DNA from: a virus
Reading direction: 5' to 3' (one strand)
Virus record (IMG/VR): IMGVR_UViG_3300031885_000004
Location: 1-64,000 of that record
Length of the DNA: 64,000 nucleotides
The notes under the pieces are model-generated. The model was not told the DNA's origin. It saw nothing but the letters and a program-made list of their open reading frames with translations, and did no database searches. The position numbers and the translations under genes are program-made. Shown one piece after another: positions 352-13,374 of the stretch. Within the stretch, counting starts at the first letter, position 1, and the number at the start of each line of letters is the position of its first letter.

Positions 352-427
352 GGCCCACTAGCTCATTTGGAAGAGCACTCGGCTGATAACCGAGAGGTGT
401 CCGGTCCGAATCCGGAGTGGGCCACCA
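352..427 (+). tRNA. tRNA-Ile(GAT)
   Basis: Cloverleaf; anticodon arm ctcgg-ctGATaa-ccgag; encoded CCA; T-loop has TCC instead of TTC. Confidence 0.92.
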
Positions 428-1181
428 ATTTAGTCCAATATCCTTGGCCAGGCTTATTGATGCCATATTTCTCACACCATTTCGATATTGTTTTATCTGA
501 TACTCCAAACATCTTAGATATATGAGTGGATGGCATTGACCATACCATCTTGCTTAATTCGTCTGATGTCGGTCTATTTGTTTTTCTGCGTAGCATTGCA
601 GCGCATTTAATTGAGCACGTTTGGGTGGAGTCAAATTTCTGCACACCACATATAGGGCATAAATCGATCAATGTATGCTCATGGGATTTGAAACCATTAT
701 CAGCATAGTAGCAAAGCGGCTTGTCTTCATATTTAGAGCGAATCTCAAACTGCTTTTGTACAATATCATTCGATAGAATCCACATTCTGTTATGTATTTC
801 ACAATGGCAATTGTGGCACAACACGATGGTTTTATTTAATTCTATCAGTAGTCTGTTCCAACTAACAGTACCACCAGATGCGATTATTCTTAAGTCTTTG
901 GTTTGCGGATCAATATGGTGAAATGCCAATGCAGCAATACATTGGCTGTAACCACAATACATGCAACTACCACCAGAATAGTCAACTGCTTTACGTTTTA
1001 AACGCCTTCGATGTTCTTTAATTCTTTCGGAATCACGGTACTTCCCTTTATCTCCTGTGTAATAACGCACACCACTTGTTGATAATCCTAACGAAATGGC
1101 AATCTCATTAATGGTCTTACCTTGCGATACTAAATTGAATATTAACTCTCTTCTTGAATTTACCATAGTAGCACCTTTCAT
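363..1181 (-). CDS. HNH homing endonuclease with N- and C-terminal HTH segments
   Basis: CMYCGY...LAFHHIDP...LCHNCHCEIH HNH core with HTH-like ends. Start probably MKGATM (1181) or MVN (1166) rather than 1457. Confidence 0.8.
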   Translation of the reverse strand: MKGATMVNSRRELIFNLVSQGKTINEIAISLGLSTSGVRYYTGDKGKYRDSERIKEHRRRLKRKAVDYSGGSCMYCGYSQCIAALAFHHIDPQTKDLRIIASGGTVSWNRLLIELNKTIVLCHNCHCEIHNRMWILSNDIVQKQFEIRSKYEDKPLCYYADNGFKSHEHTLIDLCPICGVQKFDSTQTCSIKCAAMLRRKTNRPTSDELSKMVWSMPSTHISKMFGVSDKTISKWCEKYGINKPGQGYWTKLVAHSGFGPDTSRLSAECSSK

Positions 1182-1212
1182 AATGCTACTATAGATTTGC
1201 CCGAGGGTACCA

Positions 1213-1758
1213 ATGAAGATCAACTCACAAAAAATCAATTCGACACCGCGTAAGATGCACGCGACATGGTCATTATGTCGGACTTCCTTTAACCAAGAAC
1301 TCATCGATTGGGCTAAAGAGCATAAGCGCGACCCACGAGATAAACTTATGAACCCAGTTGTTAAATCATCAACCATAGTCATAGAACACTGTGGTGAACA
1401 CATTCCAGTTGAAATAAACTCATTAACGCCGATATCACCTTGGGTGGGGTCGGTCATTTGGTTAAAAAAGATGAGGAACCATCATGGTGGTGGGTGGGTG
1501 TGGACACATTCTAGCCGATTATACACACCGGGCGAAGTCATGGTGGCAATTCGCTTAGAAACACACCCAAGTAATAACAAACAATTCGGGTTGGGGCAAG
1601 GCGGCGTTTGGTTCATTAGCGACAGTAAAGTGTTTTATCTCGGTGGTATCAGGCCAACGCTAGAATTTATTAAACAAGAAGATCTCGATAAGAACTTGAT
1701 CACAGACTTGACATTGATAGAGATACTTCGAAATAAATTAGAGGAAATAGAGATATAA
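1213..1758 (+). CDS. hypothetical protein
   Basis: 181-aa ORF ending just before tRNA-Gly. Confidence 0.6.
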   Translation: MKINSQKINSTPRKMHATWSLCRTSFNQELIDWAKEHKRDPRDKLMNPVVKSSTIVIEHCGEHIPVEINSLTPISPWVGSVIWLKKMRNHHGGGWVWTHSSRLYTPGEVMVAIRLETHPSNNKQFGLGQGGVWFISDSKVFYLGGIRPTLEFIKQEDLDKNLITDLTLIEILRNKLEEIEI

Positions 1759-4515: not shown

Positions 4516-4759
4516 TAAGAGCTAATGCTCAAGAGCCTAGGAGGATCGATGTCGAAAAGACTGAAATGGAAGATATTCTTCTTCTATGTCCACTGGAAGA
4601 AAGCCTTCTGGTGTTCGATATTCCACATGCGACATCGATGTTATCCGGCGGTTTGGAAGACCAACAATAGTAGATGGCACTGCGAAAAGTGTTGTCCGTG
4701 CGGCATTGGTCTTGAGTGCGCCATAGATATTGACAAGGACCCAGCATAAAGTAGGATAA

Positions 4760-4959
4760 GAGAGCCGATGCGCGTAAGCGACCGGAAGTGTGAGGCAACA
4801 ATGGGGCGGCGTAGGAGGGTGGAAACATCCATCAGGACTATGTGCCGAGACTGGAAACGGTTTCGGGCCGCGTCTCACTCGGGCAGATCGAGAAACTCCT
4901 GTTGTTGTGTCAGATCCACGGCGGGACTGCACTCACTGCTGAAGTCCCGGTCGGCTCTT
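4760..4959 (+). ncRNA. candidate ~200-nt structured RNA of unknown class
   Basis: Ends pair (gagagccga/tcggctctt); GNRA-capped hairpins cgc-gtaa-gcg, gggtg-gaaa-catcc, ccgagactg-gaaa-cggtttcgg; directly precedes tRNA-Glu. Confidence 0.65.
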
Positions 4960-4961
4960 TC

Positions 4962-5032
4962 GCCCCTGTAGTCCAGTGGTAGGATGCTTGGTTCTCAGCC
5001 AAGCGATGCCGGTTCGATTCCGACCAGGGGTA
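4962..5032 (+). tRNA. tRNA-Glu(CTC)
   Basis: cttgg-ttCTCag-ccaag; GTTCGA. Confidence 0.88.
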
Positions 5033-7935: not shown

Positions 7936-8008
7936 GACTCCGATGCCGAAGCGACGAGGCACTTGATTGCAAATCAAGCCTTAGCGAGTTCGAGTCTCGC
8001 CGGAGTCT
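7936..8008 (+). tRNA. tRNA-Cys(GCA)
   Basis: gactccg/cggagtc; cttga-ttGCAaa-tcaag; U73. Confidence 0.88.
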
Positions 8009-8609: not shown

Positions 8610-9044
8610 ATGAAGAGTTTCACGAAGTTTGCGCTTCCGGTTATAAAGGCAGTCATGCCGAGCCTTATATCAACCAATTTAGTAAATGTTCAACCAATGT
8701 CGCAGCCAAATTCTCTTCTCTTCTTTCTAAATTATACTATTGGAATAATAACTGGCCAGACATATTTTGTTAAAAAGGTAAAGGGCAAATGGCAAATATG
8801 CGTCAAAAAAGACTTGTATGATCCAAAATATAAACCATATTTTGCTATTACGATTGGGCACGGATTCGCAATCTATAATGCTAATGGTAAGTTATTAAAA
8901 TGCACTGACAAAACAATACCAAAGAAGTATAAGTTAGATATTGAAAGTGCCGCAGTTACTGATGGTGAAGTAATTCTCAGCGAAGATGCAAAGGCATTAA
9001 AGAAACTAAAGCAAAGCAAGACAAAAAAGACATATTGTTTCTAA
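8610..9044 (+). CDS. protein with N-terminal major-capsid (gp23 Gol-region-like) peptide
   Basis: LPVIKAVMPSLISTNLVNVQPMSQP resembles gp23 VRRAIPNLIAFDICGVQPMxxP. Confidence 0.65.
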   Translation: MKSFTKFALPVIKAVMPSLISTNLVNVQPMSQPNSLLFFLNYTIGIITGQTYFVKKVKGKWQICVKKDLYDPKYKPYFAITIGHGFAIYNANGKLLKCTDKTIPKKYKLDIESAAVTDGEVILSEDAKALKKLKQSKTKKTYCF

Positions 9045-10393: not shown

Positions 10394-10819
10394 ATGGATG
10401 AGGTTGAATTCAATAAATGGCTTGATGACCATGGAGTAAGGATGGTCGAAGAATTCGTCCATTTTGGCGAAAAACAAATATCGTTCATTTTCTGCGGTGT
10501 CCATAAATCTCGTGCGTCATTCAACCAAACCGCTATCGATGATCTGGAAAAATTCCATAATATTGATGCACGAGGAGAAACACGCCGCTTATGTAAGGAA
10601 TCATTGGAAGAAGAATTAGAAAAGGCTGCTATGCAATTTGTCACTACCGGCGATGCAGATAATTTCTTTAAGTATTTCAATTTTAAATATCTCGAGGATT
10701 TAGTTGGGAAATACCCCAAACTCATATATGATGTGGCAAACTATGAGAAATTTAAGCCTAAGGAAAAGCAAAAGGAAAAGCAAAATGGAGAAGATCAAAC
10801 ATTGCCCGCTCTGCCATAA
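10394..10819 (+). CDS. hypothetical protein with internal gp23-like segment
   Basis: SRASFNQTAIDDLEKFHNIDARGE resembles gp23 LKAxWTxELAQDLxxxHxxDAExE. Confidence 0.55.
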   Translation: MDEVEFNKWLDDHGVRMVEEFVHFGEKQISFIFCGVHKSRASFNQTAIDDLEKFHNIDARGETRRLCKESLEEELEKAAMQFVTTGDADNFFKYFNFKYLEDLVGKYPKLIYDVANYEKFKPKEKQKEKQNGEDQTLPALP

Positions 10820-11180
10820 GACATTAAAACACAAAGATGATTTCTATTCATGTAAGACAAAGGATTGTATGTTTGATGCAGAGGAAAATCCAGTATTCGG
10901 TCATTGGGGGGACGTATTTACTAACCCCGGCGATACTGAAGCGGATATGATTGACTCGGCGGGGCAATGCTTGAGATTTAGGGTTGGACCAGTCTTCGGC
11001 AAAGAAATTTTAAAATCACCAGGAATCTGGATTTCATATCAAGAAAAATACCAGAAAACTGAATTAAAAGGCGACTTTTTGATGTCAGCTGAAACATGGA
11101 AGGCGATCAAAAACCAAATAGATAAGAGGATTAAGACGTTTAACGCGAAAGCCTACTCATTTAAAATCAAAAAGAAGTAG
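10785..11180 (+). CDS. hypothetical protein with N-terminal zinc ribbon
   Basis: CPLC...CKTKDC. Confidence 0.55.
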   Translation: MEKIKHCPLCHKTLKHKDDFYSCKTKDCMFDAEENPVFGHWGDVFTNPGDTEADMIDSAGQCLRFRVGPVFGKEILKSPGIWISYQEKYQKTELKGDFLMSAETWKAIKNQIDKRIKTFNAKAYSFKIKKK

Positions 11181-11263
11181 CCCAGATGCTGGAATTGGCA
11201 GACAGCGTAGGCTCAGAACCTACGGCGAAATTTCGCACGGGAGTTCGACCCTCCCTCTGGGCA
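11180..11263 (+). tRNA. tRNA-Leu(CAG)
   Basis: gtagg-ctCAGaa-cctac; long variable arm. Confidence 0.9.
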
Positions 11264-11266
11264 TTA

Positions 11267-11491
11267 GCCTGGGTAGCTCAATGGCAGGATCCAAGGTCTA
11301 GCGGTAGAAACCGGCAGTTGGTGCAGTGGCCTTATATGCCACTAAACGCATGCTGGAATCGAGCAGAGACAAGGGTTCTGACGCACTCAGCGTATTGCTA
11401 GATCGCTTATACGATCTTACGCGGCTGAGTGAGGCTAGAGCGCTGGGTGTGAAACCCAGATATGGGGGTTCGAATCCCTCCCTTGGCTCCA
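11267..11491 (+). ncRNA. tRNA-like RNA 1 with ~150-nt structured D-loop insertion
   Basis: 5' gcctggg-tagctcaatggc; 3' agagc-anticodon-like arm-ggttcgaatcc-ccttggc-TCCA; insert has nested helices and a pseudoknot. Confidence 0.75.
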
Positions 11492-11495
11492 GAAT

Positions 11496-11726
11496 GCCGG
11501 GGTAGTTTAATTGGCGGAATTCAAAGCTTGAGTTGAAGATCTAGCGATTGAACTGAGCTTGGACAGGAATGTCGCCTGATTAGAGACTTGGGCAAGGATT
11601 CCGGCGCTCTCATAATGGCAAAACCAAAGATTGCGTCCAAGAGCAGTCAAGATTCTGCCGGTTGGGGGTGACTAAAACGCCAAGCTTGCTTGGAAATTGG
11701 TGGTTCAACTCCATCCCTCGGCGCCA
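11496..11726 (+). ncRNA. tRNA-like RNA 2 with ~150-nt structured D-loop insertion and no anticodon
   Basis: gccgggg/cctcggc acceptor with GCCA; D-stem gttt/aaac; T-arm ggttcaactcc; anticodon arm ccaag-cttg-cttgg has only a 4-nt loop. Confidence 0.75.
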
Positions 11727-11727
11727 A

Positions 11728-11946
11728 ATGAGTACCAGCGATAAAAACAAAGGATTCCTGACGATAGAAGAATATCTTGAATCCATCCGCATTGGGGTGC
11801 TCAATGATAATGATGGGTTCGGATATTTCGTGAAAATGAAGCATGGAAAGAAACAAAAAACAAGAGTTCAAGCGATTCCATCATTCGCCAATAGACAAGG
11901 AAATATCCCACGATGGGCCACACACGTAGTTTGGTACGAGAAATAA
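11728..11946 (+). CDS. hypothetical protein
   Basis: ATG 1 nt after the CCA; DNDGFGYF...WATHVVWYEK. Confidence 0.6.
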   Translation: MSTSDKNKGFLTIEEYLESIRIGVLNDNDGFGYFVKMKHGKKQKTRVQAIPSFANRQGNIPRWATHVVWYEK

Positions 11947-12711: not shown

Positions 12712-12822
12712 AATGGCTAAGAAGATAATAATTGTCATAACGTTCATCGCAATGGTGGTCATTTCCGTTTTGATGGCGGTCTTAATCGCTGATGCTTGAC
12801 CGTGAGCAATAGGAAGGTTCAG

Positions 12823-13374
12823 ATGTCGTCTCTCGATCACAAAACTCTGATTCTTAACAAATCGTGGCAGCCAGTGCACATCACTACGGTAAGGAATGCC
12901 TTGGTGCTGCTATTTAAGGGAGCGGCTAAGGCTGTTTGCCACGAGACGTTTCAGGTATACGATTTCGAAGATTGGCTACGTATACCGCCAAACGGAAACG
13001 GTTTTGTGTCAACATCGAAATTCGTAGTATCGGCTCCTCACGCCGTGATTCTCAATAACTACGACAAAATGCCAACGATCCATTCATTTTCTAAGAGGAA
13101 TGTATTCAAGCGCGATCGTTACACTTGCCAGTATTGTGGCAAGCAGGAGCACGATTTGACCTTAGACCACGTAACTCCACGTTCTAAGGGCGGGGCCAGT
13201 GAATGGACCAACATCGTCACTGCTTGCGTAAAGTGCAACAGGACCAAAGCAGACAGGACACCTAAAGAAGCCAAGATGAAGCTGATCACTAAGCCATATA
13301 AGCCAGACTTGAATTTAACTGCTATACTACATAAGCAGGCTGAACATAACCCGGTATGGGGTAGATTTATCTAA
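12823..13374 (+). CDS. HNH endonuclease (McrA-like family often seen near tRNA arrays)
   Basis: LILNKSWQP...RDRYTCQYCG...TLDHVTPRSKGG...WTNIVTACVKCN. Confidence 0.88.
   Translation: MSSLDHKTLILNKSWQPVHITTVRNALVLLFKGAAKAVCHETFQVYDFEDWLRIPPNGNGFVSTSKFVVSAPHAVILNNYDKMPTIHSFSKRNVFKRDRYTCQYCGKQEHDLTLDHVTPRSKGGASEWTNIVTACVKCNRTKADRTPKEAKMKLITKPYKPDLNLTAILHKQAEHNPVWGRFI

Follow-up and report, generated by a model that had tools for sequence, protein, structure and literature searches.

Two tRNA-shaped RNA genes with structured D-loop inserts in the tRNA array of an uncultured phage

What is encoded by a gene that has the body of a transfer RNA (tRNA), no usable anticodon loop and some 150 nucleotides (nt) in the middle of its D-loop? 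The question is raised by two tandem units, at positions 11267-11491 (unit 1) and 11496-11726 (unit 2), of the IMG/VR virus record IMGVR_UViG_3300031885_000004. The window analysed here is the first 64 kilobases (kb) of this 81.5-kb record, which comes from sediment metagenomes. The completeness of the record is estimated at ~22%, so that the full phage genome is probably ~370 kb long. A co-oriented tRNA array occupies the first 12.7 kb and is comprised of 25 tRNAs called by ARAGORN, small open reading frames (ORFs) and HNH endonuclease genes. Both units lie on the same strand as the 25 tRNAs; unit 1 begins 3 nt after tRNA-Leu(CAG) and 4 nt separate the two units. Judging from their sequences, the units are non-decoding, tRNA-shaped RNA genes, which are paralogous to each other.

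The tRNA body

Unit 1 (+ strand) corresponds to a 225-nt and unit 2 (+ strand) to a 231-nt tRNA-shaped RNA gene, and they score 244.9 and 254.5 bits, respectively, with R1, a covariance model built from the two units themselves. The acceptor stem has 7 base pairs (bp) in both: GCCUGGG/CCUUGGC in unit 1 (11267-11273/11481-11487), with one U-U at 4:69, and GCCGGGG/CCUCGGC in unit 2 (11496-11502/11716-11722). It is followed by the discriminator, U 11488 in unit 1 and G 11723 in unit 2, and by an encoded CCA (11489-11491 and 11724-11726). The D-stem is GCUC/GAGC in unit 1 (11276-11279/11438-11441) and GUUU/AAAC in unit 2 (11505-11508/11675-11678; alignment and RNAalifold), which amounts to two compensatory pairs between the units. 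In unit 1 this stem surrounds A14 A15 U16 G17 G18 (canonical G18, G19), the insert and CUA (A21), and in unit 2 it surrounds AAUUGG, the insert and CUA. The T-arm reads GGGGG-UUCGAAU-CCCUC in unit 1 (11464-11480), where the Rfam tRNA model agrees with the reading of the sequence, and GGUGG-UUCAACU-CCAUC in unit 2 (11699-11715). The nucleotides that maintain the tertiary fold of a tRNA, U8, A14, R15, G18G19, A21, G26, Y48 and G53-C61, can be read in both sequences.

An original prediction, made from the DNA letters without database searches, had described two tandem units at these coordinates, each with an acceptor stem, an encoded CCA, a D-stem, a canonical T-arm and ~150 nt inserted in the D-loop. 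All of these features were verified. The insert is at position 20 of the D-loop, where it starts right after G18G19 and stops before A21; position 20 is the site where natural tRNAs tolerate additional residues. Once the insert is removed, the D-loop is that of a textbook tRNA (AAUGGCUA, unit 1; AAUUGGCUA, unit 2), and the insert-free body is nearest to the phage's own tRNA-Thr(UGU) and to the tRNA-Thr of T4 (43.9 bits).

The anticodon-like arm is not canonical in either unit, again as predicted. In unit 1 (11443-11459) a 5-bp stem, CUGGG/CCCAG, carries a 7-nt loop, UGUGAAA, with G at position 33. In unit 2 (11680-11693; sequence and folding) a 5-bp stem, CCAAG/CUUGG, carries the loop CUUG, which has only 4 nt and therefore contains no anticodon. 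A loop of 7 nt with U33 and a readable anticodon is found in neither unit, and these loops support the earlier view that the units are not ordinary decoders. ARAGORN calls neither unit as a tRNA or as a transfer-messenger RNA (tmRNA). The Rfam tRNA model (RF00005) matches unit 1 only in part (29.6 bits, model positions 9-63) and does not match unit 2. Compared to canonical tRNA, and to tRNA-Thr in particular, the units have thus kept the acceptor stem, the D-stem, the T-arm, the tertiary nucleotides and the CCA, but have a 150-nt insert in the D-loop and no usable anticodon loop.

Fold and conservation of the D-loop insert

The units were folded separately with only the four cloverleaf stems fixed and the remainder left free. 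Both independently reach the same nested architecture, with pair probabilities that are mostly >0.9. The D-stem opens to a three-way junction with two arms, arm 1 closed by a helix designated Px and arm 2 closed by a helix designated Py, an arrangement also given by RNAalifold. Px consists of 8 bp with one compensatory change, its strands being CAGGAUCC/GGGUUCUG in unit 1 and CGGAAUUC/GGAUUCCG in unit 2. Its 3' partner is a conserved GGRUUCYG block, and RNAalifold recovers the helix unaided.

Arm 1 of unit 1 (11285-11380, +) is a long irregular hairpin, in which Px (11285-11292/11373-11380) is followed by a GUCU/AGAC helix (11296-11299/11367-11370) and an apical hairpin (11325-11343) with the loop CUUAUAU (11331-11337); its pair probabilities are 0.62-0.99 and RNAalifold supports it. 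Arm 1 of unit 2 (11515-11603, +; pair probabilities 0.95-1.0) has Px at 11515-11522/11596-11603 and the apical loop AGCUUGGA at 11556-11563. It contains an extra helix of 6-7 bp at its base (11526-11532/11587-11593), which is present in unit 2 only and is due to matching insertions on both strands at once. Such coordinated insertions are good evidence that the two strands pair with each other. The motifs TCTAGCG, GGAAT, AGAGAC and CAAGGRTTCnnnCGCWCTCA, listed in the original prediction as common to the two inserts, were found in both units. UCUAGCG, GGAAU, AGAGAC and CAAGG are located in and around the internal loops in the basal part of arm 1.

Arm 2 starts one nucleotide after arm 1, and its terminal hairpin opens with a conserved AGAUYGC. 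In unit 1 (11384-11431, +; pair probabilities 0.91-1.0) it consists of Py (11384-11391/11424-11431; duplex -12.3 kcal/mol) and an inner hairpin (11401-11416) with the loop CUUAUA (11406-11411). In unit 2 (11605-11670, +; folding) Py (11605-11612/11663-11670) is followed by a middle helix (11616-11620/11656-11660) and an inner hairpin (11629-11648) with the loop GUCCAAGA (11635-11642).

The fold differs from the one first proposed, in which a closing helix, an inner long-range helix and a pseudoknot crossing to the 3' tail formed a single domain. The strands assigned to that pseudoknot, cactcagc/gctgagtg in unit 1 and cgctctca/tgggggtg in unit 2, do form a real and conserved helix, but this helix is Py (probability >0.9), and it closes arm 2 in a nested manner instead of crossing other helices. 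The proposed closing helix (aggatc/gatctt in unit 1, 12 bp in unit 2) has a probability of ~0 in the constrained ensembles, and its 5' strand pairs in Px instead. The inner helix of unit 1, tctagcggta/tattgctaga, also has a probability of ~0 and is without a counterpart at the homologous place in unit 2. When the closing helix is forced and Py is credited, the pseudoknot model still lies at least 6 kcal/mol (unit 1) and ~16 kcal/mol (unit 2) above the nested fold. A switch between the closing helix and Px was considered, as the two share the 5' strand of Px and the closing helix has one compensatory change; it is strongly disfavoured energetically and is only a minor possibility. The folding models suggest two arms lying next to each other, which may touch through their loops, as a better description of the insert than a pseudoknotted domain closed by a single helix.

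The loop-loop contact takes up what had been called the inner helix of unit 2, cttggac/gtccaag. The complementarity is real, but it joins two apical loops in a candidate kissing contact of 6-7 Watson-Crick pairs, CUUGGA(C) at 11558-11564 with (G)UCCAAG at 11635-11641 (-7.7 kcal/mol; 11558-11641, +). The probability of such a match is ~0.002 for random loops, and it is the sole run of at least 6 pairs among all unpaired segments. Within 11526-11693 of unit 2, CUUGG and CCAAG (around AAGCUU) turn up repeatedly: the extra basal helix, the two apical loops and the anticodon-like stem all contain these words. Such elements could pair with each other in several alternative ways, and the repetition may inflate the apparent significance of the match. 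In unit 1 the sequence CUUAUA is present in both apical loops, and its UAUA cores are self-complementary. A tip-to-tip contact is therefore plausible as a model, but is convincing for unit 2 only. The arms are unequal in length, so that arm 1 must bend or else the contact is intermolecular. Complementarity between the rod tip and the anticodon loop does not exceed 4 nt in either unit.

The two units share ~55% of their bases. On the proposed helices (acceptor, D, Px, Py and T), 59 of the 60 stem cells (98.3%) pair, a share that drops to 40-60% if the 3' strands are shifted by 1-3 columns. Five double-sided, compensatory changes fall in the D, Px, Py and T helices. Three further compensatory pairs are found in the anticodon-like stem, which the MAFFT alignment had displaced by one column (CG/UA/GC/GC/GC in unit 1 and CG/CG/AU/AU/GC in unit 2). 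RNAalifold, run blind on the same alignment, recovered the acceptor, D, Px, Py and T helices and the base of arm 1, and it counted 12 pairs in which both partners differ between the units. The folding z-scores of the units are -3.1 and -2.5. Since ~98% of the stem cells pair, with compensatory changes, in spite of the ~55% base identity, the sequences of the units look like those of selected RNA genes rather than of decayed tRNAs.

Known RNA classes and the stable RNAs of T4 and T5

A comparison to Rfam, including group I intron, tmRNA, YrlA, GOLLD and ROOL, had been proposed as a check of the original prediction. With permissive filters and at E<=10, it gave only tRNA, in the form of the partial match described above, and no group I or II intron, tmRNA, Y RNA/YrlA, GOLLD, ROOL, riboswitch or small ribozyme. 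The earlier suggestion that the insert might be a ribozyme or a minimal intron found no signature in its favour, and no Rfam ribozyme or intron model matched at this threshold. Small self-cleaving ribozymes (hammerhead, HDV-like, twister, pistol and hatchet) were rejected in the same search; as read from the sequence, the order of the helices permits a topology like that of the hepatitis delta virus (HDV) ribozyme only without room for P3. A group I intron was rejected because Intron_gpI gave no match at E<=10 and because its boundary rules are not obeyed in both units together. Insert boundaries that restore AAU(U)GGCUA put a C at the end of the insert, and boundaries with a 5' U and a terminal G remove G18G19 in unit 2. 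A tmRNA was rejected as well: a D-stem and an anticodon-like arm are present, and neither ARAGORN nor Rfam finds a tmRNA. Pair 3:70 is C-G in both units, which means that the identity element of alanyl-tRNA synthetase (AlaRS) and tmRNA, G3-U70, is absent.

YrlA and other Y RNAs did not match in Rfam at E<=10. The YrlA-type Y RNAs, some of which are encoded by phages, are Ro60/Rsr-binding RNAs that join a tRNA-like fold with a separate protein-binding module. The units resemble them in combining a tRNA-like fold and a separate module in one RNA. They differ in that the tRNA-like part of YrlA caps the Ro-binding stem, whereas in the units the acceptor ends of the tRNA are the ends of the RNA. 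An artificial relative in design is the tRNA scaffold reportedly engineered by Ponchon and Dardel for the expression of recombinant RNA. There, too, the tRNA body gives the embedded foreign RNA correct processing and nuclease resistance; the cargo, however, replaces the anticodon stem-loop and is not placed in the D-loop. An antisense target for the units was sought in the rest of the window, where the longest match was 13 nt (E=0.17).

The closest natural parallels are found in phage tRNA clusters, in which additional stable RNAs have been recognised since the 1970s (RNAC and RNAD of T4, RNA1-3 of T5). In T4, rnaC (AF158101, 70908-71046; 139 nt) and rnaD (71053-71171; 119 nt) are located in tandem directly after tRNA-Arg. 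In the T4 rnaC sequence the T-arm, CCGGG-UUCGAAU-CCCGG, is perfect, and the 7-bp acceptor-like stem contains two U-U mismatches. Its anticodon-like stem of 10 bp carries a 6-nt loop, and a rod of ~65 nt stands where a tRNA has its D-arm. RNAC and RNAD, also called species 1 and species 2 RNA, build up during infection, and both the review literature and a recent transcriptome study report that no role is known for them (PMC3014915, PMC9697503). Their late accumulation was confirmed by Northern blot (PMC9697503).

The genomic setting of the units is that of T4 RNAC, with tandem, co-oriented genes inside a phage tRNA cluster, a few nucleotides from a tRNA and from each other. The layout is also similar, as tRNA-like acceptor and T-arms are combined with an expanded, structured D region and a non-decoding anticodon-like arm. 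In T4 rnaC, however, the D region is a single ~65-nt rod on a 3-bp D-like stem, without U8 or a clear G18G19, whereas the units keep a canonical 4-bp D-stem and D-loop and their 150-nt insert makes two arms. The T4 RNAs are also smaller, 139 and 119 nt compared to 225 and 231 nt, and rnaD is not obviously tRNA-shaped, whereas both units are. Sequence homology between the units and T4 rnaC is absent by R1, which gives rnaC 8.7 bits, compared to 12.9-43.9 for six of eight T4 tRNAs (8.3 and 11 for the other two). Neither T4 rnaC nor rnaD is represented by a family in Rfam; the highest-scoring rnaC matches are below threshold, with tRNA-Sec at 17.5 bits.

RNA1, RNA2 and RNA3 of T5 (AY543070, 30501-30644, 32959-33083 and 33877-33949) are annotated as 'tRNA-like stable RNA with unknown functions'. 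Like the units, they are non-decoding tRNA-like RNAs among the tRNAs, small ORFs and HNH endonuclease genes of a phage tRNA region, and they add a further structured module to a T-arm and acceptor stems. In RNA1 and RNA2 the D-arm is ordinary and the extra module is in the anticodon/variable region, the total length being 125-144 nt. No sequence similarity between the T5 RNAs and the units was seen.

By analogy in layout and genomic setting, the units can be regarded as the same kind of object as T4 RNAC, a likeness of kind and not homology. What is new is the retention of a canonical D-stem and D-loop, the larger, two-arm insert and the presence of two tRNA-shaped paralogues. A literature search found no description of tRNA-like phage RNAs with a D-loop insert. 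The claim that the units belong to an unrecognised RNA class is correct in that no Rfam family matches them, but it was overstated, as annotations of tRNA-like stable RNAs in phage tRNA clusters go back decades.

Relatives of the units were sought in several collections. A blastn search in distant mode with 11150-11800 gave no match among 50,697 GenBank phages. Three pattern scans of IMG/VR were made: CAAGGRTTCNNNCGCWCTCA gave 8 chance matches, all in coding DNA, and GGAATN{3,13}AGAGACN{0,8}AAGGRTTCNNNCGC and GGYTGRGKGWGRCTARARCGC gave 0 matches each. A metagenome scan returned 10 loci, of which only one contained the units; its scores were identical, which indicates the same phage. The scan of GTDB genomes gave 6 single chance matches and no insert-bearing unit. 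A covariance model of the two copies, recommended earlier as a means to find homologues, detected no unit in ten related phage records, which had been identified via DnaE and DnaB; R1 gave two weak matches there without tRNA context, one of them within the DnaE locus. The closest relative is IMGVR_UViG_3300027917_000033 (67% DnaE identity). In its tRNA array a structure-agnostic search for acceptor/T-arm pairs with a separation of >120 nt found nothing credible. The 16 sediment metagenome runs listed for the stretch include no RNA runs. Reads of four DNA runs are low-depth fragments of the same sequence, without joints and with one C>T change outside the units.

Possible roles and the surrounding tRNA array

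The explanation judged fairly likely, though far from certain, is that the units encode non-decoding, tRNA-shaped stable RNAs, in which the tRNA body is the chassis and the insert is the working module. The idea of a tRNA scaffold that carries a separate structured domain in its D-loop was part of the original prediction and is supported by the intact body and by the selected fold. The units would be co-transcribed with the surrounding tRNA array. Because the acceptor/T-arm stack, the CCA 3' end and the elbow nucleotides are kept, the units are most likely released by the tRNA-processing enzymes of the host: ribonuclease P (RNase P) would cut the 5' end, and the 3' end would be trimmed to the encoded CCA. 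The products would then accumulate as stable 225- and 231-nt RNAs. The tRNA body would serve for processing and stability and might also offer tRNA-binding proteins a handle. The insert would most likely bind a protein or another RNA, rather than act as a catalyst or be spliced out, and the tips of its arms could kiss, at least in unit 2.

Several observations weigh against this explanation. The covariation rests on two paralogues only, and the shuffle control is only 11/500, this being the share of shuffles that also reach five double-sided changes. In the constrained folding, pairing of (G)CUA with the UGG(C) of the D-loop is possible; UGG(C) would then not dock on the T-loop, and the elbow of the tRNA would be undone. 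The kissing contact of unit 1 is weak, with 4 A-U pairs, +0.4 kcal/mol and P ~0.04. Expression, ends and size of both RNAs are inferred from the sequence. Outside this phage no homologue was found in the collections searched, which contained only the same phage in other samples. The syntenic array of the closest relative is without the units, ORFs occupy their place, and the units are accordingly dispensable for that lineage. Finally, no partner protein was found in the 81.5-kb record, or ~22% of the genome, from which TROVE/Ro60 (PF05731), RtcB and reverse transcriptase (RVT_1) are absent.

Among the alternatives, the one that survives best, while still unlikely, is that the tRNA body and not the insert is the active part. 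The units would be tRNA mimics that soak up a host factor recognising either the CCA end or the acceptor/T-arm; this factor might be a tRNA-binding enzyme or a defence toxin by which tRNA 3' ends are modified or cut. The insert and the dead anticodon loop would exclude the units from the ribosome. This would account for the retention of all tertiary-fold nucleotides and of the CCA after decoding was lost, and also for the three compensatory changes in the anticodon-like stem, seemingly more than a processing handle needs. The tRNA arrays of phages are known counter-measures to tRNA-targeting defences (PMC10264068, PMC11464382), and the array studied here also contains a capsid-fragment ORF (Gp23 residues 3-53). 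A decoy, however, leaves the 150-nt insert with its conserved motifs and covarying helices unexplained. Decoys of anticodon nucleases need a target-like anticodon loop, which the units do not have, and this uncultured phage has no known partner of the defence or toxin type.

The units might instead be interrupted tRNA genes, whose insert would be removed as an intron or intervening sequence, by self-splicing or by enzymes of the RNase III type, leaving a tRNA of ~75 nt in one or two pieces. The textbook D-loop restored in both units by removal of the insert, the closeness of the insert-free body to tRNA-Thr of the phage and of T4, and the homing HNH endonuclease genes in the array would all fit such an origin. 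It is nevertheless improbable to a high degree, since the ribozyme models, those of group I and group II introns included, give no match at E<=10, no choice of boundaries gives the 5' U and terminal G of a group I intron in both units, the insert is without an endonuclease ORF, and the product would still not decode (G33; 4-nt loop). To our knowledge, bacterial tRNA introns are situated in the anticodon loop. No insert-less allele was found in the four DNA runs, although at their low depth this is weak evidence.

Only slightly less doubtful than no role at all, and a little less probable than an intron, is processing punctuation, according to which the units are merely sites of RNase P cleavage and 3' trimming that free their neighbours, and the insert is functionless. 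The neighbours would include the leaderless ORF after unit 2, whose ATG at 11728 is 1 nt past the CCA. The same job is done elsewhere in the array by ordinary 75-nt tRNAs, and punctuation gives no reason for the conservation of Px, Py and the insert motifs between paralogues that share ~55% of their bases. The notion of decaying tRNA pseudogenes, with junk DNA in the D-loop and structure by chance, could draw on the defective anticodon loops, the U-U mismatch in the acceptor stem of unit 1, the lack of detected homologues and the absence of the units from the closest relative, but was already disfavoured and is scarcely credible in view of the 59 of 60 stem cells that pair at ~55% base identity with 8 compensatory changes, the z-scores of -3.1 and -2.5, the same fold reached independently by both units and the helix indel of unit 2 that is coordinated on both strands.

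If the explanation of a tRNA chassis with a working insert is extended beyond this phage, the units and T4 RNAC might represent a broad, undescribed class of natural tRNA-scaffolded RNA devices that are matured and protected by the host tRNA machinery. The D-loop module, here a three-way junction with arms locked tip to tip, would capture a host factor, such as a defence protein that targets tRNA ends, or would self-assemble via its loops. This extension is speculative and more probably wrong than right by a wide measure; if true, such devices would give phages a programmable RNA counter-measure. Among the extra stable RNAs of phage tRNA clusters, the units are an unusually clear case: their body is perfect but for the anticodon loop, the insertion is exactly at the tolerant position 20, and compensatory changes between two diverged paralogues reveal the fold. 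Should such genes, which tRNA finders silently miss, be common in giant phages, they would be candidates for a class of effector RNAs of phages and nature's equivalent of the engineered tRNA scaffold. With no relatives found in the searches, the units add an example rather than an answer to the question of phage stable RNAs.

The neighbourhood of the units is that of a gene-rich tRNA array. The tRNA-Leu(CAG) directly upstream of unit 1 is at 11180-11263 (+; ARAGORN; Rfam, 43.1 bits) and leaves the 3-nt spacer. No relatives were found for the ORF at 10785-11177. The ORF after unit 2 (11728-11946, +; 72 amino acids) has no space for a Shine-Dalgarno leader. It matches phrog_14149, a family to which no function is assigned; its IMG/VR relatives are only 33-38% identical, none with units nearby, and in a set of 5.8 billion proteins it matched only itself. 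HNH endonuclease genes at 12796-13374 (+) and 363-1457 (-) flank the tRNA array or sit in it, like segB of T4 and hegC/hegD of T5. The former is 56% identical to a gene in the closest relative. The tRNA array of that relative (C1:68000-87842, minus strand) is partly syntenic, in the order Lys, Leu(caa), Leu(tag), Ile(tat), Arg(ccg), Arg(cct), and the small ORFs between its tRNAs are largely different from those of this phage.

The capsid-fragment gene within the array, ORF 8610-9044 (+), begins directly after a tRNA. Its similarity to Gp23, the major capsid protein of the T4 type, is confined to the first ~50 residues, which align with the N-terminus of Gp23 (Pfam, 4.7e-09; profile positions 3-51 of 376), and the closest relative has a copy of the ORF that is 44% identical. 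A tRNA-like element at 7942-8008 (+), directly before tRNA-Thr(GGT), is detected by Rfam only (32.9 bits), as ARAGORN makes no call. The ORF-free segment at 4745-4962 (+), which abuts tRNA-Glu(CTC), folds with -95.4 kcal/mol (z=-4.68 compared to shuffles) into several GNRA-capped hairpins and has no Rfam match. From this predicted fold, it looks like another structured RNA of the array that is not a tRNA.

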